Shown: piece after piece, positions 2,779 to 14,855 of the stretch
Numbering within the stretch: the stretch's first letter is position 1
Layout: every line of letters begins with the position of its first letter
Source: Minisyncoccota bacterium
Lineage (GTDB): Bacteria > Patescibacteriota > Minisyncoccia > Phycocordibacterales > SBAW01
Direction: 5' to 3'
Length of the DNA stretch: 64,000 nt
Assembly (NCBI GenBank): GCA_018060985.1
Contig: JAGOUZ010000001.1
Span: 85,057-149,056 of the forward strand
Translations under genes and position numbers: made by a program
The notes under the pieces: generated by a model
The model's input: only the letters and a program-made list of their open reading frames with translations
What the model was told of the DNA's origin: nothing
Database searches by the model: none

Positions 2779-2824
2779 CAAAAAACTGCGTACCTTTTTT
2801 CCGTGAGTGCTATACTAGGCCTTA

Positions 2825-3592
2825 ATGGAGCTGTTTCAGAGCGCACTCTTAGGAATTATTGAGGGTATTACCGAATTTTTGCCCATCTCTTCAACTGGGC
2901 ATTTAATACTGGCGAGCAACGCGCTTGGTATCCCCCACACGGAGTTTCTGAAAAGTTTTGAGATCATCATCCAGCTTGGCGCAATCCTTGCTGTGATCGC
3001 TCTCTACTGGCGCGATTTTCTTAAAATAGAAATTCTCAAGAAATTGTTTGTGGCTTTTTTGCCAACGGCAGTTATTGGCTTTGCCCTCTACCCTTTTATT
3101 AAAGGATACTTACTTGGCAACGAAGTAGTCGTGCTATGGGCACTCCTCCTTGGCGGTGCAGCACTGATTGTGTTTGAGATATTCCATAAAGAAAACGCTC
3201 ATACGACGGGCACTATCACGACCATGAACTACCAACAAGCCGCGCTCATTGGCGTTGCTCAGGCCCTAGCCGTAATCCCTGGCGTTTCGCGCTCTGCCGC
3301 AACCATTGTCGGTGGCCTCCTTCTTGGCATGAAGCGCATCGCCATAGTCGAGTTCTCCTTCTTGCTTGCAGTTCCCACAATGATGGCCGCAACGGGGCTC
3401 GACTTGGTAAAGAGTTATTCGAGCTTTTCGATGGATCAGTTTGGCGTCCTTGCCGTAGGATTTATTACCTCTTTTGTCGTGGCAACGCTTGCCATCAAGT
3501 TCCTCCTTGCCTTTGTACGCACGCACACTTTTATTGCGTTTGGCTTTTACCGCATCATCTTGGCCATAGTCTTTTTCCTCTTTATCTTGTAA
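2825..3592 (+). CDS. uppP: Undecaprenyl-diphosphatase (UppP/BacA)
   Basis: N-terminal signature MELFQSALLGIIEGITEFLPISSTGHLIL plus a polytopic membrane profile. Typical length of 255 aa. Confidence 0.9.
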   Translation: MELFQSALLGIIEGITEFLPISSTGHLILASNALGIPHTEFLKSFEIIIQLGAILAVIALYWRDFLKIEILKKLFVAFLPTAVIGFALYPFIKGYLLGNEVVVLWALLLGGAALIVFEIFHKENAHTTGTITTMNYQQAALIGVAQALAVIPGVSRSAATIVGGLLLGMKRIAIVEFSFLLAVPTMMAATGLDLVKSYSSFSMDQFGVLAVGFITSFVVATLAIKFLLAFVRTHTFIAFGFYRIILAIVFFLFIL

Positions 3593-3601
3593 AACTAGAG
3601 G

Positions 3602-4744
3602 GTGAAAATAGCGCTTTTTACGGACACCTTTCCCCCGCAGGTTAATGGGGTTGCCAACACCGTCGCTCGCTACGCTAAAGCACTCAGCGAGATGGGGCAT
3701 GAGGTGTGTGTGTTTACGATCTCAGATCTAAGTGCCCAGAAACTTGAAGAGGCATGCGGCCACGCTTACAGCGTTCGTACGTTTCTTTCCCTGCCTGCCC
3801 TTGTTTACCCCGGTCTGCGCGCTGGGATACCGTTTGTTGGTGTGTTAAAAGCCGTGCGCGAGTTTAATCCTGACGTTATACATACCCATACGCCTTTTGC
3901 CGTGGGGTGGAGCGCTGTTCGTGCGGCGCGTAAACTTCATATCCCACTTGTTGGCACCCATCACACATTTTTTGATCACTACTTATCGCATGTGCATCTA
4001 GACTTTGCATGGGCACGCAACCTGGTATGGAAGCTTACCGTCAGGTACTACAGTCACTGCGACGTCGTAATAAGCCCTACCCGCTCGCTGAAGCATGGCC
4101 TCGAAGATCATGGGCTAACAAAGCCGATCGAAATACTGCCGAATATCCTGGACATCAACTTTTACGCTCCCTCAGCGCGACAGCCGGTCCAGCACAAAAC
4201 TCTGGTCTACATGGGCCGACTCAGTTACGAAAAGAGCATCGATGACGTACTTAAAGCTATGGCGCATGTCATTAAGCGTATGCCCAACACTCTCCTGCTT
4301 ATTATTGGCGACGGCCCAGAGCGCGAAAAGTTAGAAGCCTTGAGCGCTGAGCTTGGTATTGCGGAACACTGCATCTTTACTGGCTTTTTGTACGGCGAGG
4401 AGCTGGTATACACGCTTGGACAGTGTGATGTGTACTTAACCGGCAGTAAGAGTGAGAACATGCCGCTGGCGCTTATGGAAGCAATGGCCGTTGGTCTCCC
4501 TATCGTTGCGGTGCGCTCGCTCGGCCTGGAAGAGATGCTCGTACACCGCAAAAATGCCCTCCTTACTGCAGCAGGAGATCCGGTAGAAATTGCCGATCGT
4601 GTTATTGAAATATTAGAAGACGAAGCTCTGCGAATAAAATTCTCTGAAAATTCGCGCACGATGTCCCGCGTCTATTCTCAAGAAGTGGTGATGGGAAAGA
4701 CGGTTGAACTCTATGAACGCGCTAGCGAATATGTTTCCAGTTAG
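3602..4744 (+). CDS. Glycosyltransferase family 4 (GT-B, retaining)
   Basis: N-terminal MKIALFTDTFPPQVNGVANTV (GT4 N-domain). C-terminal EX7E-like region GSKSENMPLALMEAMAVGLPIVA. Confidence 0.85.
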   Translation: MKIALFTDTFPPQVNGVANTVARYAKALSEMGHEVCVFTISDLSAQKLEEACGHAYSVRTFLSLPALVYPGLRAGIPFVGVLKAVREFNPDVIHTHTPFAVGWSAVRAARKLHIPLVGTHHTFFDHYLSHVHLDFAWARNLVWKLTVRYYSHCDVVISPTRSLKHGLEDHGLTKPIEILPNILDINFYAPSARQPVQHKTLVYMGRLSYEKSIDDVLKAMAHVIKRMPNTLLLIIGDGPEREKLEALSAELGIAEHCIFTGFLYGEELVYTLGQCDVYLTGSKSENMPLALMEAMAVGLPIVAVRSLGLEEMLVHRKNALLTAAGDPVEIADRVIEILEDEALRIKFSENSRTMSRVYSQEVVMGKTVELYERASEYVSS

Positions 4745-5441
4745 GATGCCATGTACGGCCAAACAATTTAACAAAGAAGAGGTTTATAGTCCACTCGAAC
4801 CATAGTCGCATCCAGCCTATGGCATGCGCCCGACGACTTTCGTGCATAACCCAGAGCCGGCGCACCAGGCGAACCTGCCCGAGCTTACGCAAGCGTCCGT
4901 ATAGATCGTTGTCTTCGGAGATATTTAGCTTTTCGTTATAACCCCCTAGCTTACGAAAGGCTTCAGTACGCATCATTTGAAACTCGCCTGAAATACCTGC
5001 CGCGCGAAATACATTGTTTACGATAAAACAGTTAAAGTTGATGATCATGTGCGAAATTTTGTCGCCCCAGGTCTCAAACTCAGGAAGTGTCTTTACCCGG
5101 GCGCCAATAGCAACCAAGCGCTTGTTTTGGTCAAATTCCTGGACGGCTGTCTTAAAAAAATCGTCTATATTTACCAATGTAACGTCGGCATCTACAAATG
5201 CCAGCAACTCTCCTGTAGCTACTTTTGCGCCTTCATTGCGGCCCCGCCCGGCATTTCGTGGCATGTTTTCATAGCGCACCACTCGGTCCGCATACTGCTC
5301 CGCTATAGCCACCGTGCCGTCGGTACTACCGCTATCAGAGACAATAAGTTCGTACGGTACACTAGAAAGCTTCTTAATGTCTTTAAGGGTTGCTTCTAGG
5401 GCTCTTTCTTCGTTAAAAGTAGGAATGATTATTGAAATCAT
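4722..5441 (-). CDS. Small GT2 glycosyltransferase, polyprenyl-phosphate sugar transferase-like (DPM1/GtrB/ArnC type)
   Basis: MISIIIPTFNEE...DSGSTDGT...DAD motif. 239 aa with no C-terminal TM. Its 3' end overlaps the GT4 gene by 23 nt in convergent orientation. Confidence 0.8.
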   Translation of the reverse strand: MISIIIPTFNEERALEATLKDIKKLSSVPYELIVSDSGSTDGTVAIAEQYADRVVRYENMPRNAGRGRNEGAKVATGELLAFVDADVTLVNIDDFFKTAVQEFDQNKRLVAIGARVKTLPEFETWGDKISHMIINFNCFIVNNVFRAAGISGEFQMMRTEAFRKLGGYNEKLNISEDNDLYGRLRKLGQVRLVRRLWVMHESRRAHAIGWMRLWFEWTINLFFVKLFGRTWHPNWKHIR

Positions 5442-5442
5442 G

Positions 5443-6024
5443 TTATTCCGCCTTGGCGAATTGCCGATTAATGTATCGCACTAGCATGAACGCCGCAACA
5501 AACCCAAGTAATAGCGCCACAATCTTTAAGCCCGGCGGTACAAAGGTAATCACGTTGCCAAAGTAATATCCGATCCCCATGATCATAAATACCCATACAA
5601 AACTGCCGACGAAGGTGATAGCTAAAAATGCTAGAAACGGCACTTTGAGCATGCCTGCCATTAAAATAGTCCCTGCGCCGGTGCCATAGCCATTGGTTAC
5701 TTTGGAGATCATAAGTATGGAAAGCTTGTAGCGATGGAACCGGCGCTCAATCTTTTCTACTACTGCATGAGTGAGTCCAATTTTTATACCCCACCGGTTA
5801 ATAAGCCTTCGTGCACCAAAATAGCCTACGAAGTACCACACAATGTCTGAAATGACATCACCAGCAAACAGGGCGGCATAGGTGGGCCAGAACTCGGTTT
5901 GTCCGGCTTGCCATAGCACGCCACCGGTCATCATCACGAAAGCTCCTTCAGTAAAGGAACCTAAGAAGATAAGAATGTATTTTGAGCTCTCAAGAAACGC
6001 AACAATGGTAGATACAATATCCAT
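5443..6024 (-). CDS. DedA/VTT-family membrane protein; start moved to the internal Met of the 264-aa ORF
   Basis: From MDIVSTIVAFLESSKYILIFLGSFTEGAFV onward the protein shows the DedA core, ending in VTNGYGTGAGTILMAGMLKVPFLAFLAITFVG. The upstream 71 codons of the ORF have no DedA similarity. Confidence 0.7.
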   Translation of the reverse strand: MDIVSTIVAFLESSKYILIFLGSFTEGAFVMMTGGVLWQAGQTEFWPTYAALFAGDVISDIVWYFVGYFGARRLINRWGIKIGLTHAVVEKIERRFHRYKLSILMISKVTNGYGTGAGTILMAGMLKVPFLAFLAITFVGSFVWVFMIMGIGYYFGNVITFVPPGLKIVALLLGFVAAFMLVRYINRQFAKAE

Positions 6025-6036
6025 GGAGTAGCGGTA

Positions 6037-6549
6037 GTGCTTATAGTATACTCTAGGGGTATGGATAAGCGGGATTATACCCACTTGCGTTACACCCTTC
6101 CCCATTCGGCAATGGTGTATCCTGCTAGCCTGGGCGACCGCCTTAAGTACTGGTTTTGGCGTGCCTTCCATCCTATCCACCCCTATGTGCGCGACGCCAT
6201 TATTGCACTGCGTATCTACAAATATGAAGGGCGCCAAGACTACTTAATTGGCAAAATTGCTCCAGGCCTTTCAATTGAAGAGATAGTCTCTCATCTTATT
6301 GAGCAGGGCTATTCCAACCATTTTATTGCCCTTGAAGACCCTGGTGAGGTTGTCAGCCTCCGCTATACCGATAGTTTTAAATACCAGTACCATATACGCG
6401 TCTTTGAAGACGGCGAGGTTCGTGCACATTATGAATTCACCCCCGAGTGCCATCCCATTCTTCATATGAAGAATGGCACCTGGGAAGATCGCCGACATGA
6501 GTTCTTAACTTTACTAGGCCACAGAATTGTTCCAGTGCAAGAGCTCTAA
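6037..6549 (+). CDS. Hypothetical protein; alternative starts at 6061 or 6112
   Basis: 170-aa ORF with coding-like composition, divergent from the DedA gene. No recognisable family. Confidence 0.4.
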   Translation: MLIVYSRGMDKRDYTHLRYTLPHSAMVYPASLGDRLKYWFWRAFHPIHPYVRDAIIALRIYKYEGRQDYLIGKIAPGLSIEEIVSHLIEQGYSNHFIALEDPGEVVSLRYTDSFKYQYHIRVFEDGEVRAHYEFTPECHPILHMKNGTWEDRRHEFLTLLGHRIVPVQEL

Positions 6550-6671: not shown

Positions 6672-7361
6672 ATGCATTTGCTCATTGTTGAAGACGAAGA
6701 GAAGTTAGCTAAAGCACTAAAAAAGGGTCTCGAGTTAAAAGGCTACGCCGTTGACTGGCTCCCTGATGCCGAAAAGGCACGGAACCGCATCATGCTCTAT
6801 CGAAATGAGTACGATTTGATCATTTTGGACCTTATGCTCCCCAATGTAGATGGCGCCACTATTACTGAAGCAGTTAGAGCGGAGGGCGTAACTACCCCTA
6901 TTATTATCTTGACTGCTCGTAACGAGACCGAACACAAGGTAGACCTGCTCAACAAAGGTGCCGACGATTATATTGTAAAACCCTTCTCATTTGAGGAGCT
7001 ATTGTCCCGCATCAGCGCCGTATTGCGCCGGCCTACTACCACCAAAGCGCCAGTCCTCAAGGTAGGAGTACTCGAAATGGACATTGGCACCCGCACTGTG
7101 CGCAAAAATGGCAAGGAAGTGCCACTTACTCTTAAGGAATTTTCACTCCTTGAGTGCTTCATGCGACAACCAAACGAGGTACTCTCGCGAGAAAAGCTCT
7201 TTGATCATGTATGGGACTTCAATTCCCTCTCCTGGTCTAACGTACTCGACGTGCATATGAAGAACCTACGCAAAAAACTTGATCAAACCGAAGATATAGA
7301 GCCTCTATTCGAGACGGTACGTGGCGTCGGCTACAAACTGGCCGGCGAAGTGCACGAATAA
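6672..7361 (+). CDS. OmpR/PhoB-family response regulator (receiver + winged-helix DNA-binding domain)
   Basis: MHLLIVEDEEKLAKALKKGLELKGY...DLMLP receiver. C-terminal ...LSREKLFDHVW...VHMKNLRKKLD...TVRGVGYKL. Confidence 0.9.
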   Translation: MHLLIVEDEEKLAKALKKGLELKGYAVDWLPDAEKARNRIMLYRNEYDLIILDLMLPNVDGATITEAVRAEGVTTPIIILTARNETEHKVDLLNKGADDYIVKPFSFEELLSRISAVLRRPTTTKAPVLKVGVLEMDIGTRTVRKNGKEVPLTLKEFSLLECFMRQPNEVLSREKLFDHVWDFNSLSWSNVLDVHMKNLRKKLDQTEDIEPLFETVRGVGYKLAGEVHE

Positions 7362-7467
7362 TCTCTTGTTTTCACCTCTCCTTCATTACGTCCGGAGTAG
7401 TCTAGTAATCGGACAGGTTTTATTATCCGAGTAACGTCTTAGGAGTATGAAGGTACTGGCTTGAGCT

Positions 7468-7517
7468 GAGGGGGTCTCTTTCCCACATGTGGAGAGAGGC
7501 CCCCTCGGCGCTTTTTG
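7468..7517 (+). terminator. GC-rich imperfect hairpin plus T-run downstream of the response-regulator gene
   Basis: gagggggtctctttcccacatgtggagagaggccccctc followed by ggcgctttttg. Confidence 0.5.
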
Positions 7518-7519
7518 CC

Positions 7520-7527
7520 TGTATAAT
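7520..7527 (+). promoter_or_regulatory. Candidate extended -10 element (tgTATAAT) placed 7 nt before the cupin ATG; suggests a leaderless transcript
   Basis: tgtataat at 7520-7527. The ATG at 7535 has no Shine-Dalgarno sequence. Confidence 0.3.
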
Positions 7528-7534
7528 TTTGTAC

Positions 7535-7888
7535 ATGGAAGGCCTTTCCAATTTTGAAAGGGATGTTCGTCCGTGGGGCGCGTTTGAGCGTTTTACCTTA
7601 AACGAAAACACAACGGTAAAAATAATTACCGTAAAGGCCGGAGAAGCCTTTAGTCTGCAAACCCATGCACACCGAAAAGAAGTCTGGCGCATTCTCAGTG
7701 GCTCTGGTTCCGTGACCGTAGGCGACACAAAAACCGAAGCGATTGCCGGAAAGAGTTTCTGCATAGAAGCCGGGGTACAACATCGCGCAGAGGCAGGAAC
7801 GGAGGATCTGCAGTTTTTGGAAATAGCCTTTGGAGAGTTTGATGAGGGGGACATTACCAGGCTCGAAGATAAGTATGGGCGAACCTAA
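7535..7888 (+). CDS. Cupin-domain protein, mannose-6-phosphate isomerase type II C-terminal-like
   Basis: PWGAFERF...VKIITVKAGEAFSLQTHAHRKEVWRILSGSGSV...HRAEA...LQFLEIAFGEFDEGDITRLEDKYGR matches the PMI-II/ManC cupin. Start chosen at MEGLSNFERDV, since the longer ORF starting at 7487 would span the terminator hairpin. Confidence 0.7.
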   Translation: MEGLSNFERDVRPWGAFERFTLNENTTVKIITVKAGEAFSLQTHAHRKEVWRILSGSGSVTVGDTKTEAIAGKSFCIEAGVQHRAEAGTEDLQFLEIAFGEFDEGDITRLEDKYGRT

Positions 7889-8999
7889 TTTCACTCCGTT
7901 ATTTTTTTTACTACTTGCCCTTGCGCTCGGTTTTCTTGCGCTTGTTTACTACTGGTACACACACGTAAGTAAACCGGTTGAGTTAAAGAGATTCAAAGAA
8001 AACCCAATATTGAGCCCCCGCAGAGAGGTCTGGTGGGAGTCTGAGGCAGTGTTCAACCCAGCAGCGCTGTATAGCGACGGCCGAGTGCATCTTCTGTACC
8101 GAGCGCTTGGACCTGATGGTATTTCGCGCATTGGCTATGCATCATCTGCTGATGGCATACATTTTGACGAACGCCTTCCTCACCCGGTGTTCCAACCTGA
8201 CCGCAGCTTTGGCATCCCTAACCAAAACCGCATCTATGGCCCTCTTTCCTACAGCCAAACATCATATGCATCTGGCGGCGGCTGGGGCGGCTGCGAAGAT
8301 CCTCGTATGGTAAAAATCGACGATCATGTACATATGACTTTTGTAGCATTCGACGGCTGGGGCTTTGTACGTGTAGCACTTGCCTCCATACTCCACGCAA
8401 GTTTTTTGGGCAAAAAATGGAATTGGAAGCAACCCGTACTCATGTCGCCGCCCGGAGAAATTCATAAAAACTGGGTGCTCTTTCCAGAAAAGATTAATGG
8501 CAAATATGCCATACTACACAGCCTTACACCAAAGATCCTTGTTGACTACGTAGACAATCTTGAAGCGTTTGATGGCACTAAGTTTATTTATGGATCAACG
8601 CGCGCCGGAGGGCGCGAGGGCGAATGGGACAACATAGTACGTGGCGCCGGTGCACCACCTATCAAAACCCCTTATGGCTGGCTTCTTTTTTATCATGGTA
8701 TGAACTCGCAAGAGCCGCATATTGGCTACAAAGTGGGTGCCATGCTCCTCGATCTAGATGACCCAACACAGGTACTGTACCGATCTGCGTACCCGATACT
8801 TACCCCGAACGAGTGGTACGAGCATGACTGGAAGCCAAACGTCGTAATGGCAACCGGCGCAGTAGTTGTAGGAGACGAGTTGCTCGTGTATTACGGTGGC
8901 GGGGATAAACATATTGCAGCCGCTCGCACAGATTTGCGTGACTTCATTCGCCGACTTCAGACTGACGAGCATATTGTGCTTACTCCGGTTACACTATAA
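7875..8999 (+). CDS. Glycoside hydrolase family 130 (DUF377) glycoside phosphorylase-like enzyme with an N-terminal transmembrane anchor
   Basis: TM segment LFFLLLALALGFLALVYYWY, then the GH130 hallmarks FNPAALYSDGRVHLLYRALG and GCEDPRMVKIDDHVHMTFVAFDG. The ORF could instead start at 7830. Confidence 0.8.
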   Translation: MGEPNFTPLFFLLLALALGFLALVYYWYTHVSKPVELKRFKENPILSPRREVWWESEAVFNPAALYSDGRVHLLYRALGPDGISRIGYASSADGIHFDERLPHPVFQPDRSFGIPNQNRIYGPLSYSQTSYASGGGWGGCEDPRMVKIDDHVHMTFVAFDGWGFVRVALASILHASFLGKKWNWKQPVLMSPPGEIHKNWVLFPEKINGKYAILHSLTPKILVDYVDNLEAFDGTKFIYGSTRAGGREGEWDNIVRGAGAPPIKTPYGWLLFYHGMNSQEPHIGYKVGAMLLDLDDPTQVLYRSAYPILTPNEWYEHDWKPNVVMATGAVVVGDELLVYYGGGDKHIAAARTDLRDFIRRLQTDEHIVLTPVTL

Positions 9000-9003
9000 G
9001 AGT

Positions 9004-10929
9004 ATGTACGTTATCCGTCGGAGCACCCATAACCCTTTTATCTCACCCATCGTTGATAAATCGTGGGAAGCTCGCGGTACGTTTAACCCTTCTCCCGTTA
9101 AAAAAGGAAATATTACGCACGTACTCTACCGCGCGCTTGGCCGCCCGGATGCCCTTATGACACCTGCAGGCCTTTCTACCATAGGCAAGGCGCTCTCGCT
9201 CGATGGCAAGCACTTTCAGAACCGCAGGCAATTTATTATTCCTGAAGCTGAGTGGGAAAAATACGGATGCGAAGACCCTCGGGTTACCTTTTTCGAAGGC
9301 AAGTATTATGTTTTTTATACTGCCCTTGGCGGCATGCCGTTTGGACCAGGCAACATTAAGATTGCCTGTGCTATTTCTAAAGATCTTGAGACGGTTGATG
9401 AGCGACATTTGATAACCCCCTTTAACGCAAAGGCTATGACGCTCTTTCCAGAACGCGTTAATGGCAAAATAACCGCTATTCTGACCGCACATACCGACGA
9501 ACCACCCGCAAAGATTGCCCTGGTGCAATGCGATGAGATTTCCGATTTGTGGGACATCGGGTTCTGGAATAAATGGCACGCGGAGCTCGACCAGCACACT
9601 ATCAACCCACTCCGCTTTGATACTGACCATGTTGAAGTTGGCTCTCAGCCAATAAAAACTAAAGACGGTTGGTTGCTCTTTTACTCGTACATCCAGCATT
9701 ACTTTGGTGGTGGTGAACGTGTGTTCGGCATTGAGGCAATGCTCCTCGACCTAAAAGATCCTCATAAGATTGCAGGTAAGACGAGAGGCCCTATCATGGT
9801 GCCTGAAGAAATCTATGAGAAGTACGGCATTGTGCCTGAGATTGTCTTCCCATCCGGCGCACTACTTCAGGATGACAATCGCGTTGATATTTACTACGGC
9901 GCTGCCGATACGGTATGTGCACGGGCCAGCCTTAACCTGCCTGACCTGCTTTCTGCCATGCTTCCCGAACGCAGAGTAGAGTTGGCGGTACGCGCCAAAG
10001 AAAATCCGATACTTATACCGAACCCTAAAAATGCGTGGGAAAAGAATGCGGTATTTAACGCCGCTGCGATAGACATAGATGATACGGTGAGGATCCTCTA
10101 CCGCGCCATGGGCGACGACAACACCAGCGTACTCGGCTACGCTACGTCAACAAACGGCACCAAGATCACCGAGCGCCTTGATGTACCTGTCTACGTTCCC
10201 CGCGAAGATTTTGAGATGAAGCACGGCTCTCCTACCGGCAACTCTGGCTGTGAAGACCCTCGTATTACCCGTATAGGTAATACCTTATATATGACCTACA
10301 CCGCCTATGATGGCGCGAATCCAACCCGAGTAGCACTTACCACTATTTCTATAAAAGACTTTTTGGCAGAGCGGTGGGACAAGTGGAGCAAACCGGTCAT
10401 AACAACGCCCGAACATGTCAACGAAAAAGACCTGTGTCTTATGCCGGAAAAAATAAACGGCCAGTACATGATTATGCACCGCATAGACCCTATGATCTGT
10501 GCCGACTTTCTTGATGATCTTGAATTTACAAAGAACAAGCTGACCCGCTGTATTGAAATTATGGGCCCAAGGCCCGGCATGTGGGACAGTAAGAAAATCG
10601 GCATTGCAGGGCCTCCCATAAAAACCAAGAAGGGTTGGCTCCTGATCTATCACGGAGTTTCGAAGACCTCTACCTACCGGCTTGGCGCGGTACTGCTCGA
10701 TCTCAAAAATCCTTCTATTATTCTATCGAGAAGCGTAGATACTATCCTTGAGCCGCTTGAGCCCTACGAAAAAGAAGGTATTGTGCGCAATGCCGTATTT
10801 TCTTGCGGACAAGCCCTACGAGGAGACAACCTCTATATATATTATGGCGGCGCAGACACCGTACTTGCTGTAGCAAAAGTCTCCCTTCAAAAACTCCTTG
10901 ATATCTTGCTACCGGACAACCTGGCCTAG
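9004..10929 (+). CDS. Tandem two-domain GH130 (DUF377) protein
   Basis: Two complete GH130 modules. Module 1: FNPSPVKKGNITHVLYRALG / GCEDPRVTFFEGKYYVFYTALGG. Module 2: FNAAAIDIDDTVRILYRAMG / GCEDPRITRIGNTLYMTYTAYDG. Start moved to the Met 5 nt after the upstream stop. Confidence 0.8.
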   Translation: MYVIRRSTHNPFISPIVDKSWEARGTFNPSPVKKGNITHVLYRALGRPDALMTPAGLSTIGKALSLDGKHFQNRRQFIIPEAEWEKYGCEDPRVTFFEGKYYVFYTALGGMPFGPGNIKIACAISKDLETVDERHLITPFNAKAMTLFPERVNGKITAILTAHTDEPPAKIALVQCDEISDLWDIGFWNKWHAELDQHTINPLRFDTDHVEVGSQPIKTKDGWLLFYSYIQHYFGGGERVFGIEAMLLDLKDPHKIAGKTRGPIMVPEEIYEKYGIVPEIVFPSGALLQDDNRVDIYYGAADTVCARASLNLPDLLSAMLPERRVELAVRAKENPILIPNPKNAWEKNAVFNAAAIDIDDTVRILYRAMGDDNTSVLGYATSTNGTKITERLDVPVYVPREDFEMKHGSPTGNSGCEDPRITRIGNTLYMTYTAYDGANPTRVALTTISIKDFLAERWDKWSKPVITTPEHVNEKDLCLMPEKINGQYMIMHRIDPMICADFLDDLEFTKNKLTRCIEIMGPRPGMWDSKKIGIAGPPIKTKKGWLLIYHGVSKTSTYRLGAVLLDLKNPSIILSRSVDTILEPLEPYEKEGIVRNAVFSCGQALRGDNLYIYYGGADTVLAVAKVSLQKLLDILLPDNLA

Positions 10930-10932
10930 CAT

Positions 10933-11715
10933 ATGGATTTTAAACCAAAGCTTATGGCGTTCGACCTCGACGGCACCCTTGCCGAGAGCAAACAGCGTCT
11001 GTCTGCCGACATGGGCGAACAATTTGCCGAGCTCCTTGAGGTAATGCCCGCAGCAATCCTTTCGGGTGCAGGTTTTGACCAGTTTGAGAATCAGTTTCTA
11101 CCCGCACTTCCTGCAGAAGCCAAGCTTGAGAAATTATTTCTTTTTCCTACCAACGGTGCTGAATGCATGATCTACAAAGACGGCGTATGGAAGGCTAAAT
11201 ATGACCTTTCGTTTAATCTAATGGAGCGTGGGCGTATTATGCAGGCACTCAAAGAATCTCTGGCGGAGAGTGGTCTTAGTACGATTCCAGAATATACAGA
11301 AGAATGGGGCAACCAGATAGAAGACCGTGGTGCACAGATTACTTTCTCGGCGCTAGGCCAGAAAGCGCCGATAGAGATCAAGAGAGCCTGGGACCCAAAC
11401 CGCACCAAGCGCAAGCCGCTTTACGATGCACTTAAACGCAGACTTCCCGACTTTTCCATCGGTCTTAATGCGAGCACCTCTATCGACATCACAAAGAAAG
11501 GCGTTAATAAAGCCTACGGTATCCGCAAACTCATAGAACTTACCGGCATCTCAGTGTCAGAAATGCTCTACGTGGGCGACGCACTTGAAGAAGGCGGCAA
11601 TGACTCCGTAGTGGTACAAACGGGCATTAAGACGCATGAAGTATTTGGACCGGATGAAACCGCCCGCCTGATTGGCGAAATCTTACGCACTACACGTCAT
11701 ATGGCTACTGCTTAG
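10933..11715 (+). CDS. HAD-IIB hydrolase, eukaryotic-type phosphomannomutase-like (PMM family)
   Basis: N-terminal AFDLDGTLAES (DxDGT) and C-terminal LYVGDALEEGGNDSVVVQTG...PDETARLIGEIL. These resemble the GGNDxEI C-terminal block of eukaryotic PMM. Length is 260 aa. Confidence 0.7.
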   Translation: MDFKPKLMAFDLDGTLAESKQRLSADMGEQFAELLEVMPAAILSGAGFDQFENQFLPALPAEAKLEKLFLFPTNGAECMIYKDGVWKAKYDLSFNLMERGRIMQALKESLAESGLSTIPEYTEEWGNQIEDRGAQITFSALGQKAPIEIKRAWDPNRTKRKPLYDALKRRLPDFSIGLNASTSIDITKKGVNKAYGIRKLIELTGISVSEMLYVGDALEEGGNDSVVVQTGIKTHEVFGPDETARLIGEILRTTRHMATA

Positions 11716-11729
11716 TAGAGGAGAATTCC

Positions 11730-14351
11730 CTACTGAGCCATGTACTGGAGACCTTCCTGCAGGGTAACCGCTTTAATACCTGACTGTTTGATATAGGTGA
11801 CGATATTCTGGAAGAGTGCAGTTGTTATCGCGTATTCGTTGCCACCGCTTGCCACCACATCGTGGAGTTCAAAGATTACCCAGCGTTTGTCGGCAATAGC
11901 CTGGTCTATCCACGCCTTAGCACTTGCGAGCGTCGTGGTTTTGTCTAGGCGGATATCATAGAGCGCATACTTGTTGGCTGTTGGAGAGTTGAGACCCCAA
12001 TAACTGCCACGCGCGCCAACGTAACCCGCGTCCTTAGTAACCTGCTCTACCGTAGGATTAACACCACCAATTGGATAGATGAAGGTCTTGGGTGTAAAGC
12101 TTTGTGCCACAAGGTCATCAAACGAACCCTTAATCTCAGTTTGCATTTGAGCCTGTGTGAGCGAAGTCAGGTCAGGATGAGTACGTGAGTGGCCGCCGAT
12201 CTCGTGACCCTCGTTCTTGAGTGTCGTGATGTTGGCCCAAGACATGTACGGTGAGGAATTAACTTCACTCGTAATGATGCCGAACATTCCCTTGATACCT
12301 GCAGTGTTCAGAATGCCGCGAGCATTTTGATACTGAGTTGCGAGACCATCGTCGAACACCAGCGTTACCATGCCTTGTGCAAATGGATTTGCAGGAAGTG
12401 CGATGAGCGACACGTTGTCTATCGTGAGGCTGCCATTTCTTGCAAGTGCATGAAATACATTCATTTCAACCGCATTTCTCGGTACCGTAACCTCTGCGCG
12501 GATCGACTGCCAAGTGCCGCCAGTAGATGGAGCGGTTGCAAGCCACTGATAGCTGTAAGTGCCATCACTCAGCTTAAACTCGATGTTGACCTCAGATATT
12601 GCAGTTGAGTTGTAGTCATTGCGATACTCGTAGATGGTATTGCTGGATACCGGAAGAGAGGTGTACACCCACTTAATGTCTCCAGTACTGTAGTTGCTGA
12701 TCTGCGCCGTTACTCCCCGACCACTTTTACCAGTTGCAGGATACGTAAAGGTTGCTGTGTTGCTACCCCACTTACTTGAATGCCATCCCTGAGGCACTGT
12801 GGTTCCAGTCTCGAAGGTACCGTTTGGTATCAAGTTGCTGCCGCCTGAGGGCATTGTGCATGAAGTGCCATTCCATGTTCCACCTTGGTTTACGCAGGTC
12901 GTGTCGGCGCACGGTGTGGTCGTTTGATCACCAGGAACATTCGGGCAGGTATCTGTTGGCGGAGGTGTAGTGCCGTCATCTTTTTTCAATGTTGCATTGT
13001 CTAACGTGAGTGTTCCTACTGAATTTAGAATGTGAAGAATAGACACTGATACCGCTCCCGTTGGCACGGTAAATTGCTTAGTAAACGTTGCCCACGAAGC
13101 AGAAGCTGGGGCATTGCCCAGCCATACGTAGCTTGTGGAACCATTGCTTAACTTAAATTCAGCCGTAACGTTAGTAACTTTATCTGAGATGTAGTCATCA
13201 GAGTAGGTATAGGTCTTCCCCGCCTCTACGGTTACATGATTGTGTATCCACTTGGCATCGCCTGAGGTATATGCAGTGACCTGGAGTTTTGCCGCATTGC
13301 CACTCTTTCCTGTAACTGGGTAGGTAAAGACAGGAGTAATCGTACCCCAGCTTCCTTTAATCCATGCTTGTGGAACTCCACTCGTGCCGACCGTATCTAG
13401 ATTGCCGTTTGTAATCAAGTTAGTCGTAGTAGGCGGAGGCGGCATGTCGCATGATGAACCGTTCCAGGTGCCGCCCTGGTTTACGCAGGTCGTGTCTGCA
13501 CACGGAGTAGTGGTCTGATTTCCGGGAACATTCGGGCAGGTGTCGGTAGGAGGTGGTGGCGGCATGTCGCAAGAACTACCATTCCAAGTACCTCCTTGCT
13601 GGGTGCAGGTCGTGTCAGCACACGGTGTAGTTGTTTGGTTGCCCGGGACATTTGGACACGTATCTGTAGGTGGCGGTGGTGGCATGTCGCAAGATGAACC
13701 GTTCCAAGTTCCCCCTTGATTCACGCACGTTGTATCAGCGCATGGGGTAGTTGTTTGATCACCAGGAACATTCGGACAGGTGTCAGTTGGAGGAGTAACA
13801 ACGCCGTCTTTTTGTACAGAAACATTATCTATCGTAAGCGTACCAACCGATGAGAGCGAGTGAAGAACCGACATAGAGACAGCATTTGCAGGAACCGTAA
13901 ATTGCTTGCTGAATGTCTTCCAGGTGTCATTGGTGGTGGCGGGATTGCCAAGCCAAACATAGCTATAGCTACCGTCCTGAAGTTTGTATTCGACACTTAC
14001 GCTGCTGGCCTTGTTGGAAGAATAGTCGTCAGAAAAGAGATATACCTCGCCTGGCGTAACTGGCATGTGGTTGAAGTACCACTTTGCATCACCGGAGGAA
14101 CGCTTAGTAACCTGTACCTTTGCTGCTTTAGCACTAGTATTTCCTGCAACTGGGTACGAAAAAGTTACCGTAATGGTACCCCATTTGTCGGTGCCCCATC
14201 CTTGAGGAATGGAAGCGTTTGAAGACGCTGTTTCTAAATTTCCGTTCTGAACTATGTTCGGACCAAATGCTGCAAATGTGTAAAAAACCGGTACCAAGAG
14301 TGCTCCCAATACAACCAATGCCGCCCTCCGCGTATAACTCATGTCTATCAA
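11730..14351 (-). CDS. Secreted multi-domain protein: four CBM4/9-like carbohydrate-binding modules separated by Cys-rich 40-aa linker modules, with a C-terminal CE4 (NodB) polysaccharide deacetylase
   Basis: Signal/TM start MSYTRRAALVVLGALLVPVF. Four repeats of ...GWGTDKWG...TLTIDNVS. Linkers PPPTDTCPNVPGxQTTTPCADTTCVNQGGTWNGSSCDMPPPP (three in tandem, one further downstream). C-terminal GMVTLVFDDGLATQY...HSRTHPDLTSL matches the NodB motifs. Confidence 0.8.
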   Translation of the reverse strand: MIDMSYTRRAALVVLGALLVPVFYTFAAFGPNIVQNGNLETASSNASIPQGWGTDKWGTITVTFSYPVAGNTSAKAAKVQVTKRSSGDAKWYFNHMPVTPGEVYLFSDDYSSNKASSVSVEYKLQDGSYSYVWLGNPATTNDTWKTFSKQFTVPANAVSMSVLHSLSSVGTLTIDNVSVQKDGVVTPPTDTCPNVPGDQTTTPCADTTCVNQGGTWNGSSCDMPPPPPTDTCPNVPGNQTTTPCADTTCTQQGGTWNGSSCDMPPPPPTDTCPNVPGNQTTTPCADTTCVNQGGTWNGSSCDMPPPPTTTNLITNGNLDTVGTSGVPQAWIKGSWGTITPVFTYPVTGKSGNAAKLQVTAYTSGDAKWIHNHVTVEAGKTYTYSDDYISDKVTNVTAEFKLSNGSTSYVWLGNAPASASWATFTKQFTVPTGAVSVSILHILNSVGTLTLDNATLKKDDGTTPPPTDTCPNVPGDQTTTPCADTTCVNQGGTWNGTSCTMPSGGSNLIPNGTFETGTTVPQGWHSSKWGSNTATFTYPATGKSGRGVTAQISNYSTGDIKWVYTSLPVSSNTIYEYRNDYNSTAISEVNIEFKLSDGTYSYQWLATAPSTGGTWQSIRAEVTVPRNAVEMNVFHALARNGSLTIDNVSLIALPANPFAQGMVTLVFDDGLATQYQNARGILNTAGIKGMFGIITSEVNSSPYMSWANITTLKNEGHEIGGHSRTHPDLTSLTQAQMQTEIKGSFDDLVAQSFTPKTFIYPIGGVNPTVEQVTKDAGYVGARGSYWGLNSPTANKYALYDIRLDKTTTLASAKAWIDQAIADKRWVIFELHDVVASGGNEYAITTALFQNIVTYIKQSGIKAVTLQEGLQYMAQ
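13441..13800. repeat. Three perfect-length (120 nt) tandem DNA repeats encoding the Cys-rich linker modules; a fourth diverged copy lies at about 12846-12965
   Basis: Units 13441-13560, 13561-13680 and 13681-13800 each begin ggcatgtcgca(a/t)ga... and align with a few substitutions. Confidence 0.75.
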
Positions 14352-14411: not shown

Positions 14412-14855
14412 CTATCGAGAGAATATGCCAAAGACTGAGTGAAAAAGCTGTGAAAAGAACTCTAGCACATTTTTTGCATGCTCGGCAATTTTAGTAGATG
14501 ACGTAGAAATCTCTTCATCAACTGCTATTTCTGTCTCTGCATGTGCAGTAGAACTGCTGTGTGCGTAAGTCTCGCCACTTACTGCTTCGACAACCGTTTC
14601 TACCTTAATGGGCTCGCCAGGGGCGTAGGTTTTATCAACCACTTCGCTCGTGGTATTGCCATCTACAGTTTTAATGATCTCGGTATGCGAAGTGCCTTCG
14701 TGGTCACCCGCGTGGACAATACTTGTTACCTGCACCGATGCAGAAGAATCCCCCGTTACTATTGTTTGCCCTTCGCCCGCAACCATACCGCCCGTTGCCG
14801 CAGCAGCTGCGCCTGCAGTCATTACTACTCCAGCTACAAATGAATCAATAGACAT
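14412..14855 (-). CDS. Hypothetical small protein with a hydrophobic N-terminal segment, co-transcribed downstream of the 901-aa surface protein
   Basis: Starts 4 nt after the upstream stop. N-terminal segment FVAGVVMTAGAAAAATGG. Acidic, Thr/Ser-rich. Confidence 0.45.
   Translation of the reverse strand: MSIDSFVAGVVMTAGAAAAATGGMVAGEGQTIVTGDSSASVQVTSIVHAGDHEGTSHTEIIKTVDGNTTSEVVDKTYAPGEPIKVETVVEAVSGETYAHSSSTAHAETEIAVDEEISTSSTKIAEHAKNVLEFFSQLFHSVFGIFSR

Follow-up and report, generated by a model that had tools for sequence, protein, structure and literature searches.

The closest characterised relatives of the GH130 enzymes considered here are Teth514_1788 and Teth514_1789, a pair with differing chain-length preferences that has been assigned to the salvage of imported β-1,2-oligomannan. 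The β-1,2-mannoside cluster of Thermoanaerobacter also contains five ABC-transporter genes and a GH5 gene (PMC4264767), while no source of β-1,2-mannoside has been identified even for this organism. A decision tree for GH130 and GT108 holds that a short L2 loop permits access of GDP-Man, and that an enzyme with fewer phosphate contacts is expected to be a GT whose phosphorylase activity is weak or absent (PMC12814180). In GT108, phosphorylase and transferase are not told apart by the switch residue alone (PMC10913872), and the R202A substitution of Uhgb_MS abolished GT activity and lowered GP activity 16-fold; thus, a Ser or Ala substitution alone does not predict a transferase.

A four-gene unit conserved in Paceibacteria

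In the window analysed here, a stretch of 64,000 nucleotides, positions 7535-11715 carry four plus-strand genes for a type-II PMI cupin, an anchored GH130, a two-module GH130, and a HAD-IIB mutase (Table 1). The tight co-directional packing described in the original prediction was observed: the cupin and anchored GH130 genes overlap by 14 nt (or by 47 nt when the gene caller's alternative start at 7842 is used, which yields an anchored GH130 of 385 aa), and gaps of 4 nt and 3 nt precede the fusion and the HAD-IIB gene, respectively. The Pfam profiles PF01050, PF04041, and PF03332 were all matched, in agreement with the gene identities assigned earlier. The four genes are predicted to form a single transcription unit.

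Table 1. Features of the four-gene operon and its surroundings in the window
Feature	Position	Strand	Length	Characteristics
Response regulator	6672-7361
Terminator-like hairpin	7465-7509	+		19-bp stem with 12 G-C pairs, followed by a T-run
Extended -10 box	7520-7527	+		TGTATAAT; ends 7 nt before the cupin ATG
Stand-alone cupin	7535-7888	+	117 aa	PF01050 (MannoseP_isomer), 73.2 bits
Membrane-anchored GH130	7875-8999	+	374 aa	PF04041, 145 bits
N-terminal transmembrane helix	7893-7961	+		TPLFFLLLALALGFLALVYYWYT; N-flank acidic/neutral, C-flank Lys/Arg-rich
GH130-GH130 fusion	9004-10929	+	641 aa	PF04041, 309 bits in two stretches
Fusion N-module	9004-9963	+		Catalytic Asp and β-1,2 Glu/Lys kept; Arg replaced by Thr, His by Ser
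Fusion C-module	9964-10929	+		R367, E417, D418, K475, H492-R493, K531, and H550 invariant
HAD-IIB phosphohexomutase (PMM/APGM family)	10933-11715	+	260 aa	PF03332, 33.7 bits
CBM/CE4 protein	11730-14351		873 aa	Convergent with the operon

We compared 80 independent Patescibacteria loci from species-representative genomes, 71 of which could be assessed for the order of the four genes. The two GH130 genes are adjacent at all 80 species-level loci, wherever the contig permits. The order cupin-GH130-GH130x2-HAD was present in 45 of the 71 assessable loci and the order HAD-cupin-GH130-GH130x2 in 11, and both the cupin and the HAD gene adjoin the GH130 pair in 56. This four-gene arrangement is far above chance expectation, and its occurrence in two different orders points to selection for a functional link. 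In species-representative genomes, relatives of the anchored GH130 were confirmed at no fewer than 438 places. This family is very abundant and strongly conserved (55-89% identity) in organisms with minimal genomes. The four-gene unit is a hallmark of Paceibacteria, which belong to the ultra-small Patescibacteria/CPR.

The cupin and the HAD-IIB mutase

By its sequence, the cupin is a homologue of the PMI domain found in type-II PMI/GMP enzymes, covering only model positions 357-467 of the 467 in TIGR01479, and its family keeps RPWG, SLQxH..RxExW, HR, and DIxRxEDxYGR. We predict that it is a mannose-6-phosphate isomerase that interconverts Fru6P and Man6P. Neither a close solved structure nor a close characterised single-domain relative was found for this protein.

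The score of the HAD protein with PF03332 exceeds the cut-off of 22.4 bits, and the protein also matches PF08282 (39.6 bits). Its termini, DLDGT and GGNDSVV...PDETARLIGEIL, are present as previously quoted, and the family keeps DxDGT, SGA, K, and GGND. The closest characterised relative is the L. lactis α-phosphoglucomutase (APGM, PDB 4BND; 35% identity, E 1.8e-38), and human PMM2 is matched with E 5e-10. Assignment as a Cof/YidA phosphatase was rejected: the TIGR00099 score of 40 bits falls short of the cut-off (137), and APGM and PMMs are the nearest solved proteins, in line with the earlier description as PMM-like. A PMM-fold mutase in a bacterium had been regarded as uncommon, whereas the Lactococcus enzyme shows that a branch of the PMM family is already known from bacteria. 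This enzyme is reportedly specific for glucose-1-phosphate. We predict the HAD protein to be a phosphomannomutase (Man6P <-> Man1P), with a mannose specificity that comes from context only, because the closest characterised relative is an APGM.

These two proteins bear on an alternative without a linear mannose pathway, in which the HAD protein is an α-phosphoglucomutase or a sugar phosphatase, the cupin is not a PMI, and the variant GH130 modules are non-catalytic binding or regulatory domains. The nature of the closest mutase, the distance of the cupin from solved or characterised single-domain proteins, and the loss of phosphate-binding residues from two GH130 modules are consistent with this alternative. 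However, the cupin keeps the type-II PMI signature, with putative Gln/His/Glu/His metal ligands and its conserved C-terminal motif, neither variant module shows any variation at the catalytic Asp or the sugar-binding residues, and the two gene orders speak for functional linkage. We consider it highly improbable.

Three GH130 modules with different active sites

All three GH130 modules share an invariant Glu next to the catalytic Asp and a Lys, the determinants of the β-1,2 linkage, the latter being equivalent to K199 of BT3780 and K184 of Uhgb_MS (PMC4599007; PMC7660257). These residues point to β-1,2 and not β-1,4 as the predicted linkage, and thus away from the β-1,4-mannobiose or Man-GlcNAc first suggested for assays.

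The expectation that every GH130 module would carry phosphate-binding residues was correct for one of the three. The C-module retains the phosphate-binding Arg and His in all 76 homologues and shares 40-41% identity with Teth514_1788/1789; it is predicted to be a canonical β-1,2-mannoside phosphorylase, and the only one in the operon. The N-module lacks both residues, with Thr/Ser at the Arg position in 70 of 76 homologues and Ser/Cys/Ala at the His position in all 76, and it has near-invariant carboxylates close by (D165 and E211 in 76/76, D208 in 74/76). Under criteria taken from PMC4599007 and PMC7660257, this combination suggests a non-phosphorolytic, hydrolase-like module.

The anchored GH130 lacks the Arg alone. 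At this phosphate “switch” position the window protein has Ser, and its 120 homologues have Ser (80), Ala (29), Gly (4), or Arg (1), that is, Ser or Ala in 109, whereas the His of the phosphate pair is invariant. A 23-aa insertion with an invariant SGGGWGG precedes the catalytic CEDPR, and GGGDK is invariant in the family. The L2 loop is short, as in the C-module and the Teth514 enzymes, and together with the absent switch Arg this predicts a transferase-leaning enzyme by the published GH130/GT108 decision rules. There is also an invariant Arg one residue past the R242-equivalent position, which with the Lys of GGGDK could rebuild a phosphate site and would then count against a transferase role.

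Membrane topology of the anchored GH130

The AF2 model of the anchored GH130 (pLDDT 87.5) consists of one helix and a five-bladed propeller, and by fold it comes closest to Teth514_1788/1789 (35% identity, TM 0.85). The helix comprises residues 18-42 of the 385-aa form, and a hydrophobic N-terminal helix is found in 114 of 115 homologues. On average, 0.05 Lys and Arg residues precede the helix and 3.36 follow it, with an excess after the helix in 113 of the 115 homologues. This excess implies an N-out/C-in anchor and, with it, a catalytic domain in the cytoplasm. No signal peptide or hydrophobic segment was visible in the cupin, fusion, and HAD proteins. In many relatives the anchor is replaced by a propeller domain that is soluble and degenerate, so membrane tethering is not essential to the family.

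The flank charges contradict the earlier suggestion that the anchored GH130 acts at the cell surface, where it would build or remodel surface glycans or glycolipids extracellularly by reverse phosphorolysis. The N-terminal hydrophobic segment is the one feature in favour of such a role, and it has no positive n-region and is oriented N-out/C-in by the positive-inside rule. It also speaks against such a role that Man1P, GDP-Man, and phosphate at millimolar levels are located in the cytoplasm. In addition, none of the characterised GH130 phosphorylases has a signal peptide (PMC7660257). Surface action is thus scarcely credible.

A possible route to an endogenous β-1,2-mannoside

We tentatively propose, with somewhat less than even confidence, that the operon encodes a largely reversible Fru6P-Man6P-Man1P-β-1,2-mannoside module acting on an endogenous mannoside, by analogy with the mannogen cycle of Leishmania. 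The whole unit would be cytoplasmic and would join central metabolism to β-1,2-linked mannosides: the cupin and the mutase would connect Fru6P through Man6P to α-Man1P, and the GH130 modules would form or cleave Man-β-1,2 linkages, with the labour split three ways. The C-module would act as a reversible phosphorylase, (Man)n + Pi <-> (Man)n-1 + Man1P, and the N-module most likely as a hydrolase or trimming enzyme on the same glycan. The anchored GH130, at the inner membrane face and presumably not an efficient phosphorylase, may use Man1P or GDP-Man to prime or elongate an acceptor close to the membrane. The substrate would be either a reserve resembling mannogen or a glycan linked to the membrane, made from and returned to hexose phosphate; since all steps are reversible, gene content does not give the direction of flux. 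Fructose-6-phosphate would in this way be tied to β-1,2-mannosides via three versions of one fold, one of them phosphorylase-like. The gene identities, the active-site residues, the charge pattern around the anchor, the synteny, and the promoter layout are observed, and the enzymatic activities, the sugar used by the mutase, the flux direction, and the polymer itself are inferred. To our knowledge, no β-1,2-mannan has been reported from any CPR bacterium, which speaks against the proposal. A GDP-Man pyrophosphorylase gene adjoins the cluster in only 1 of 80 loci, which counts against the endogenous reading.

The route from β-mannoside to Fru6P by GH130, PMM, and PMI in the original prediction is reasonable in its logic and gains weight from the conservation of just these four genes across Paceibacteria, but its catabolic direction is not favoured. 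Under minimal catabolism, an exogenous or host-derived β-mannoside would be imported and phosphorolysed to Man1P, which PMM and PMI would convert to Fru6P for glycolysis, with the variant modules specialised for particular chain lengths or aglycones. We rate this as unlikely, though still a weighty competitor and a serious rival. One operon holds the canonical phosphorylase module with PMM- and PMI-family genes, the exact set for imported-mannoside catabolism, the Teth514 pair provides a precedent, and the hydrolase-like N-module could finish the last disaccharide. CPR bacteria are also generally seen as host-dependent scavengers. Against this, none of the neighbours that unbiased clustering showed to be conserved within ±8 kb across the 80 loci is a transporter, a solute-binding protein, or an endo- or extracellular mannanase, unlike in Thermoanaerobacter; mannoside transporters could lie elsewhere in the genome. 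Furthermore, β-1,2-mannosides are rare in nature, yet the anchored family is widespread, two of three GH130 modules fail published phosphorylase criteria, and a membrane tether has no obvious purpose on a cytoplasmic catabolic phosphorylase. A self-made mannoside is therefore more likely than imported food.

Neighbouring genes and promoter

BacA, GT4, GT2, and DedA/VTT, which are envelope and lipid-carrier genes, are frequent upstream neighbours in the window and its relatives, and the same clustering found VTT, GT4, and GT2 recurring in 17-24 of 80 loci. They would belong to one pathway with the operon if it served pure envelope-glycoconjugate biosynthesis, in which PMI and PMM supply Man1P, the tethered GH130 works at the inner leaflet as a β-1,2-mannosyltransferase with a lipid-linked acceptor, chain length is edited or limited by the fusion, and a flipping step brings the product to the outside. 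The conserved cytoplasm-facing anchor and the loss of the switch Arg with a still short L2 loop agree with such a pathway. Nevertheless, we regard it as rather improbable: only about one locus in four keeps this neighbourhood, the first GH130 is soluble and anchorless in many relatives, one-way biosynthesis does not readily account for a canonical phosphorylase module that is fully conserved, and the core unit has no conserved flippase or polymerase.

In 54 of 65 loci, a hexamer resembling a -10 box ends 5-10 nt ahead of the cupin start (exactly 6 nt in 34), as compared to 7.6% of shuffled control sequences. No Shine-Dalgarno sequence was found upstream of the cupin in the window, nor in 64 of the 65 loci, and given the close distance of the -10 box to the ATG, the transcript is probably leaderless. 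The response regulator and the convergent CBM/CE4 protein are located as originally reported; the former adjoins the operon in no more than about 17-21 of 80 loci, and the latter was matched in only 7 of 81 (L001-L081). A conserved terminator-like hairpin and the promoter stand between the response-regulator gene and the operon, and the hairpin appears to insulate the one from the other. Its stem sequence is kept in relatives L033 and L082 with a variable loop, and similar GC-rich hairpins lie upstream of the promoter at other loci.

Gene arrangement and transcription of the operon

Four consecutive co-directional genes in the window encode a cupin, a GH130 protein with an N-terminal anchor (the anchored GH130), a GH130 protein made of two modules (the fusion, with an N-module and a C-module), and a HAD protein. 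The original prediction was borne out for this arrangement at 7535-11715, as the ORFs, spacing, and Pfam matches are all as described, and Pfam likewise identified the response regulator and the convergent CBM/CE4 protein that it placed beside the operon. The genes are joined by a 14-nt overlap followed by gaps of 4 nt and 3 nt. For the anchored GH130 a gene caller chose a start at 7842, but the start at 7875 is supported by the closest homologues, which open with MGEPNF or MDEPNL.

Table. Coordinates of the operon, its flanks, and other features of the window
Feature	Position	Strand	Remarks
Hybrid MASE1-HisKA-HATPase-receiver kinase	518-2581		
BacA (undecaprenyl-PP phosphatase family)	2819-3589		Envelope/lipid-carrier block
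GT4	3602-4744		Envelope/lipid-carrier block
GT2	4722-5441	-	Envelope/lipid-carrier block
DedA/VTT	5443-6237	-	Envelope/lipid-carrier block
Mini-ORF MKVLA*	7446-7464		Five codons
Hairpin, 19 bp, GC-rich, then T-run	7465-7509		3' of response-regulator gene; terminator-like
Cupin, 117 aa	7535-7888	+	ORF; PF01050
GH130 anchored protein	7875-8999	+	ORF; PF04041
GH130 two-module protein, 641 aa	9004-10929	+	ORF; PF04041 in two stretches
HAD protein, 260 aa	10933-11715	+	ORF; PF03332 with PF08282
CE4 protein, 873 aa	11730-14351	-	Three CBM-like modules
147-aa protein	14412-14855	-	
901-aa protein	14860-17565	-	No Pfam match
CE4/PG_binding_1/GT2 fusion, 803 aa	19267-21675	+	
Fused RNA polymerase beta-beta' gene, 2287 aa	44797-51657	-	Uninterrupted ORF

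The sequence TGTATAAT directly follows the hairpin, ends 7 nt before the cupin ATG, and lacks a Shine-Dalgarno motif. The hairpin stem and the -10 box are kept in relatives, while the loop and flanks vary. Of 65 loci compared, 54 have a -10-like hexamer whose end lies 5-10 nt ahead of the cupin start, in 34 of them at exactly 6 nt (shuffled controls, 7.6%). In these 54 loci the box reads TATAAT, TATACT, or TACAAT, often with G or TG in front, and ends about 6-7 nt before the ATG (window 7520-7537). The Shine-Dalgarno motif is missing before the cupin in 64 of the 65. A -10 box so close to the cupin ATG, together with the missing Shine-Dalgarno motif, points to a leaderless mRNA: the operon transcript probably starts at the cupin, with the downstream genes translationally coupled. 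Terminator-like matches inside the operon are weak only, and a terminator and a promoter are conserved ahead of its first gene. An Rfam scan of the whole window at gathering thresholds gave zero matches, so the conserved upstream hairpin is not any known riboswitch or sRNA.

Co-transcription with the response regulator is unlikely because this terminator and promoter lie between the two. Their adjacency is also limited to one clade, in which a histidine kinase gene intervenes as well; this gene separates the response regulator from the cupin in 16 related loci (including L005, L009, and L014) and is missing from the window at 6672-7535. A hybrid kinase is encoded farther upstream. Just before the conserved hairpin there is a five-codon mini-ORF (ATG AAG GTA CTG GCT TGA); in two related loci, L033 and L082, it is kept as MKVLA or MKILA, with changes that are conservative or at third positions. 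It may have arisen by chance, belong to the hairpin flank, or encode a leader peptide.

Conservation of the four-gene unit across CPR

A large part of bacterial diversity belongs to CPR/Patescibacteria, whose genomes are minimal and whose biochemistry is almost wholly uncharacterised. Environmental assemblies under the labels Pacebacteria or Patescibacteria contain exact and near-exact copies. Relatives of the anchored GH130 number in the thousands; identity to it is 54-89% for the best 120, and the named ones among these 120 are labelled Patescibacteria, Paceibacterota, Adlerbacteria, or Parcubacteria. When one genome per species was scanned, relatives of this first GH130 were confirmed at at least 438 places, of which we compared 80 loci from Adler-, Nomura-, Zambryski-, and Taylorbacteria, Paceibacterota, and bins labelled Saccharibacteria.

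The two-module GH130 immediately follows the anchored-type GH130 in every one of the 80 loci where the contig continues. The order cupin, GH130, two-module GH130, HAD is present in 45 of 71 assessable loci, and HAD, cupin, GH130, two-module GH130 in 11; the remaining loci have only the HAD gene (2), only the cupin gene (4), or neither adjacent (9, one clade). Unbiased clustering of all neighbouring ORFs in the 80 loci returned the four operon families as the only widely conserved ones, followed by DedA/VTT (24 loci), GT4 (21), response regulator (21), GT2 (17), and histidine kinase (16). Since the four-gene unit is kept in most of the 80 species-level loci, it is likely central to CPR physiology, whether as a reserve, an envelope glycan, or a phosphate/hexose buffer. 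A link between the CE4 protein and the operon was dropped, with matches in 7 of 81 loci (L001-L081).

The same clustering found no conserved sugar transporter, binding protein, or endo-mannanase near the cluster. This bears on the main model of the original prediction, the catabolism of imported or exogenous mannosides, which would make the unit a tidy but ordinary salvage operon; as no importer is conserved near the cluster, we regard it as possible but somewhat unlikely. A purely biosynthetic envelope pathway would fit the BacA, GT4, GT2, and DedA genes upstream, but this block (2819-6237), which is also present in close relatives, recurs in only about a quarter of the distant loci, and such a pathway appears improbable to us.

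A motif scan found no GDP-mannose pyrophosphorylase in the window. Within the 1.27 Mb that the related loci cover, a ManC-like gene stands beside the cluster in L013 only (1 of 80 loci; 8026-9422, minus strand), where it is directly upstream and encodes a guanylyltransferase with the GGSGTRLWP motif and a cupin-like C-terminus. Literature searches for GH130 with Patescibacteria, Parcubacteria, CPR, or Paceibacteria returned no published description of this cluster or of these GH130 variants; the only relevant mention is of two GH130 genes in a Microgenomates genome. The operon consists of known folds and chemistry; what is new is the widely conserved combination, two uncharacterised active-site classes, and a membrane tether.

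Predicted mutase and isomerase

The HAD protein scored 33.7 bits against PF03332 (threshold 22.4) and 60.5 bits against the HAD-IIB model TIGR01484 (threshold 41.8). The motifs DLDGT, SGA, K, and GGND are conserved in 120 homologues, as is the first substrate-phosphate Arg (EDR). A Cof/YidA-like phosphatase, which would have contradicted the PMM assignment proposed earlier, does not fit the protein: it passed the PMM model, matched TIGR00099 over a C-terminal stretch only (40.4 bits vs 137), and failed the Cof, SPP, and phosphoglycolate-phosphatase equivalogs. No Pfam or NCBIfam match to PGM_PMM domains I-IV (ManB, PGM, GlmM type) was found in its 260 residues.

The best solved relative is the L. 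lactis alpha-phosphoglucomutase (APGM, PgmH, 4BND), with an E-value of 1.8e-38 and 35% identity. Eukaryotic PMMs are much weaker matches (E about 5e-10), and identity to human PMM2 is about 23% when an approximate PMM2 sequence is used. In the cap, LGQK and KxxW follow APGM, while ‘SID’ follows the ‘SFD’ of PMM. With APGM as the best match and the HAD and PMM models passed, we place the protein in a known bacterial branch of PMM-fold mutases; it has the HAD-IIB type, the PMM fold, DxD, S, K, and GGND in common with APGM and PMM1/2. APGM is reportedly a glucose-phosphate mutase (Neves 2006, Nogly 2013), whereas the HAD protein adjoins mannoside enzymes, and we infer its mannose specificity (Man6P <-> Man1P) from this gene neighbourhood. 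If the HAD protein were instead a PGM or a phosphatase and the GH130 modules were non-catalytic, there would be no pathway at all, a reading that we consider very improbable.

The cupin matched PF01050 over the full model length (73.2 bits vs 23.6) and TIGR01479 only at model positions 357-467 (72.9 bits vs 373). It resembles the PMI domain of GMP-PMI enzymes of the AlgA/ManC/XanB type but, at 117 aa, is without their guanylyltransferase domain, and it is therefore predicted to be a stand-alone PMI-type cupin rather than a GMP-PMI. The family conserves RPWG, SLQxH..RxExW, HR, and DIxRxEDxYGR, which we take to be the signature of type-II PMI with the metal ligands Gln/His/Glu/His. No close solved structure was found for the cupin.

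Active sites of the three GH130 modules

The anchored GH130 matched PF04041 with 145 bits and the fusion with 309 bits over two stretches. The AF2 model of the anchored GH130 has a pLDDT of 87.5, and its top Foldseek matches are all GH130, a family with a 5-bladed beta-propeller fold. The best sequence and fold relatives of all three modules are the beta-1,2-mannoside phosphorylases Teth514_1788/1789 of Thermoanaerobacter (30-41% identity; Foldseek TM 0.85 for the anchored GH130). The cut-off of NF052550 (beta-1,2-mannobiose phosphorylase, 450 bits) was reached neither by the anchored GH130 (221.1) nor by the two-module protein (433.6), and the whole two-module protein scored 188.5 bits against the BT3780-type model NF058598 (cut-off 550). 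Membership in GT108 was rejected: Foldseek matches to MTP1, MTP2, and MTP4 have E-values of 1e-7 to 1e-9 and 12-16% identity, as compared to 4e-28 for GH130_6, and PDB sequence searches with the GH130 proteins returned no GT108 match.

GH130 phosphorylases have a proton-donor Asp (D104 in Uhgb_MP), a phosphate-binding Arg/His pair (R168/H231 in Uhgb_MP), and no signal peptide, while GH130 hydrolases are without the Arg/His pair and carry carboxylate bases (PMC7660257, PMC4599007). Specificity for beta-1,2 linkages is marked by a Glu beside the catalytic Asp and by a Lys, corresponding to E141/K199 of BT3780 (PMC7660257, PMC4599007); the Lys is K184 in Uhgb_MS. The Uhgb_MS numbering (pair R202/H261) was derived from PDB alignments.

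The proton-donor motif CEDPR is present in all three modules and invariant among the homologues of each (120 for the anchored GH130, 75-76 for the N-module, and 76 for the C-module), and the beta-1,2 Glu and Lys are likewise invariant. As YRA, CEDPR, and the Lys are kept in all three modules, all are predicted from sequence to be beta-1,2-specific enzymes.

The modules differ at the phosphate site. In the C-module, H492-R493 is invariant (76/76), as is the His of YHG (76/76), and a Lys occupies the R242 position as in Teth514_1789; judged by these residues, it is a canonical phosphorylase. Here the residues expected for the phosphorolysis of the original prediction are in place, but the other two modules do not have the full pair: the anchored GH130 is without the Arg, and the N-module has neither Arg nor His. 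Of 76 N-module homologues, 60 carry Thr, 10 Ser, and 5 Pro at the Arg position, and 67 carry Ser, 5 Cys, and 4 Ala at the His position. Beside these lost basic positions, D165 and E211 are invariant and D208 is kept in 74/76, with His or Gln at the R242 position. This residue pattern shows the changes that convert phosphorylases to hydrolases in GH130_3.

In the anchored GH130 the His of YHG is kept in 120/120 homologues. At its switch position, the phosphate-contacting Arg of Uhgb_MS (R202) and Uhgb_MP (R168), 80 of the 120 carry Ser, 29 Ala, 4 Gly, and 1 Arg; the window protein reads LHS. An invariant KN-W replaces KD, and Val at the R242 position is followed in 119/120 by an Arg, which is R256 in the 374-aa form of the window protein. 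Also invariant are GGGDK and, ahead of CEDPR, the SGGGWGG of a 23-aa insertion. The shifted Arg and the extra Lys of GGGDK could restore phosphate binding. The L2 loop is short both in the anchored GH130 and in the C-module.

The class of the anchored GH130 (Asp and His, no Arg) is missing from the published table of GH130 mechanisms (PMC7660257). There are thus two natural, deeply conserved GH130 lineages outside every class of that table, one with the donor Asp and His but no Arg, and one with the donor Asp but neither Arg nor His that is predicted to be cytoplasmic and is fused to a phosphorylase. As both stand beside a canonical paralogue, which serves as an internal control, the question of phosphorylase, transferase, or hydrolase can be tested with the three proteins of one operon.

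The ‘KN...H[S/G/A]’ lineage is large at the 50%-identity representative level, and a few of its members keep the Arg. Most are soluble proteins of about 610-640 aa, in which a degenerate GH130-like N-terminal domain replaces the anchor. Relatives such as P0241 (971 aa), P0288 (1029 aa), and P0242 (697 aa) are fusions of two kinds: some chains combine three or four GH130 modules, and in others the anchored variant is joined straight to a canonical ‘KD...HR’ module. These multi-GH130 fusions support the idea that differently equipped modules act together.

Topology of the anchored GH130

A strongly hydrophobic 19-residue stretch is present in 114 of 115 homologues with a normal N-terminus, and the AF2 model has a single long helix followed by a confident propeller, with low confidence in the inserted loop. 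Hydrophobic N-termini are absent from the cupin, fusion, and HAD proteins. The mean number of Lys and Arg is 0.05 in the 15 residues before the helix and 3.36 in the 15 after it, and the C-flank is more positive in 113/115 homologues. By the positive-inside rule, this Lys/Arg-rich C-flank indicates an N-out/C-in anchor with the catalytic domain facing the cytoplasm. The cell-surface location that had been raised for this protein is contradicted by the C-in charge pattern; we rejected it and consider a surface enzyme extremely improbable.

Proposed function

A recent rule set (Ladeveze et al. 2025, PMC12814180) relates GH130 structure to activity. GDP-Man can bind when the L2 loop is short or folded outward; an enzyme with four phosphate contacts is a bifunctional phosphorylase/transferase, one with fewer contacts is a transferase whose phosphorylase activity is weak or absent, and one with a carboxylate in the phosphate pocket is a hydrolase. 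Applied to our modules, with the L2 loop short in the anchored GH130 and the C-module, these rules suggest that the C-module is a phosphorylase (with a possible side GT activity), that the anchored enzyme leans toward a transferase, and that the N-module is hydrolase-like. These assignments carry caveats: in the same study, GT activity was lost in Uhgb_MS R202A (PMC12814180), and in GT108 the switch residue by itself does not set activity (PMC10913872).

The steps of PMI, PMM, and phosphorolysis would all be cytoplasmic and each of them reversible. An endogenous beta-1,2-mannoside, either a reserve oligomer/polymer or a membrane-proximal glycan, could be built from hexose phosphate and recycled to it. 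Beta-1,2-mannosides are rare in the environment (PMC4264767), and this rarity, the lack of a conserved importer, and the very small genomes favour an endogenous mannoside. That the operon acts on such a mannoside, made from and returned to hexose phosphate, is the reading we tentatively prefer, with confidence just short of an even balance. Further caveats to it are that, in the loci compared, the genes for GDP-Man synthesis are unlinked to the cluster and that many relatives of the first GH130 are unanchored.

A more specific proposal, which is speculative and in our view unlikely to hold in full, is that a beta-1,2-mannan, intracellular or membrane-linked, is synthesised and turned over in Paceibacteria, and perhaps in many CPR, by GH130-fold enzymes only, as a bacterial counterpart of Leishmania mannogen. 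The Arg-less tethered GH130 would act as the beta-mannosyltransferase or primer, and the fused modules would recycle the polymer to Man1P. If the proposal were true, the tethered enzyme would be the first membrane-bound natural GH130-fold beta-mannosyltransferase or primer enzyme, and the cell would gain a buffer of hexose and phosphate that works near equilibrium at little or no expense of nucleotide triphosphate, which would suit energy-starved ultra-small cells.

Comparison with known systems

The unit has the beta-1,2 determinants, the short L2 loop, and the paired genes in common with Teth514_1788/1789 (Thermoanaerobacter sp. X-514, GH130_6), and the C-module has every catalytic and phosphate-binding residue of these enzymes. 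In contrast to the Teth514 pair, the CPR unit has three modules, of which two have altered phosphate sites, as well as one anchor and one fusion. The Thermoanaerobacter cluster, proposed as a salvage route to GDP-Man, contains an ABC importer, a GH5, a Man1P guanylyltransferase, and a GT4, whereas the CPR unit has none of these and has PMI and PMM instead (PMC4264767).

The predicted division of labour in the CPR modules mirrors the Leishmania mannogen cycle (GT108 MTP1-7, PMM, PMI), which is, as the CPR unit would be, a cytoplasmic beta-1,2-mannan system coupled to Man1P, Man6P, and Fru6P. In both, paralogues of the 5-bladed propeller are split into transferase-only and phosphorylase types, a split that is predicted for CPR. 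It is partly marked at the same switch position, with His in MTP1/2 and Arg in MTP3/4, but with Ser/Ala, not His, in the CPR anchored enzyme. Unlike the mannogen cycle, the CPR unit is not GT108, has no cluster-linked GDP-Man pyrophosphorylase, and has one anchored enzyme; its polymer is putative.

The GH130_3 mannosidases BT3780 and BACOVA_03624, like the N-module, keep the Asp and the beta-1,2 Glu/Lys without the basic phosphate binders and with carboxylates nearby (PMC4599007); D165, D208, and E211 of the N-module are likened to E227 and E268 of BT3780 by residue spacing alone. Unlike BT3780, the N-module has no signal peptide, is predicted to be cytoplasmic, and is fused to a phosphorylase. 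Uhgb_MS and the other dual GP/GT beta-1,2 GH130 enzymes have the same fold and beta-1,2 residues as the CPR modules. The GH130 phosphorylases of the Ladeveze study all carry the Arg (R202), with GT as a weak side activity, whereas the CPR anchored family is naturally without it and also without the GH130_4 lid, and carries a 23-aa insertion of its own.

Other features of the window

In the 873-aa CE4 protein, the CBM-like modules are separated by four Cys-rich repeats that are nearly identical and about 40 aa long (TDTCPNVPG[DN]QTTTPCADTTC..QGGTWNG.SC.MP). The adjoining 901-aa and 147-aa proteins are both kept in L082 (906 and 150 aa) and are probably surface proteins; the larger one has a Ser/Thr/Pro/Ala-rich N-terminal region after a hydrophobic segment. 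The 803-aa fusion, also found in L082, combines a CE4 polysaccharide deacetylase with PG_binding_1 and a processive GT2 (chitin/PNAG-synthase-like). In the fused RNA polymerase gene, the RpoB domains Rpb2_1 to Rpb2_7 occupy residues 21-1049, followed by the RpoC domains Rpb1_1 to Rpb1_5 at 1068-2165.
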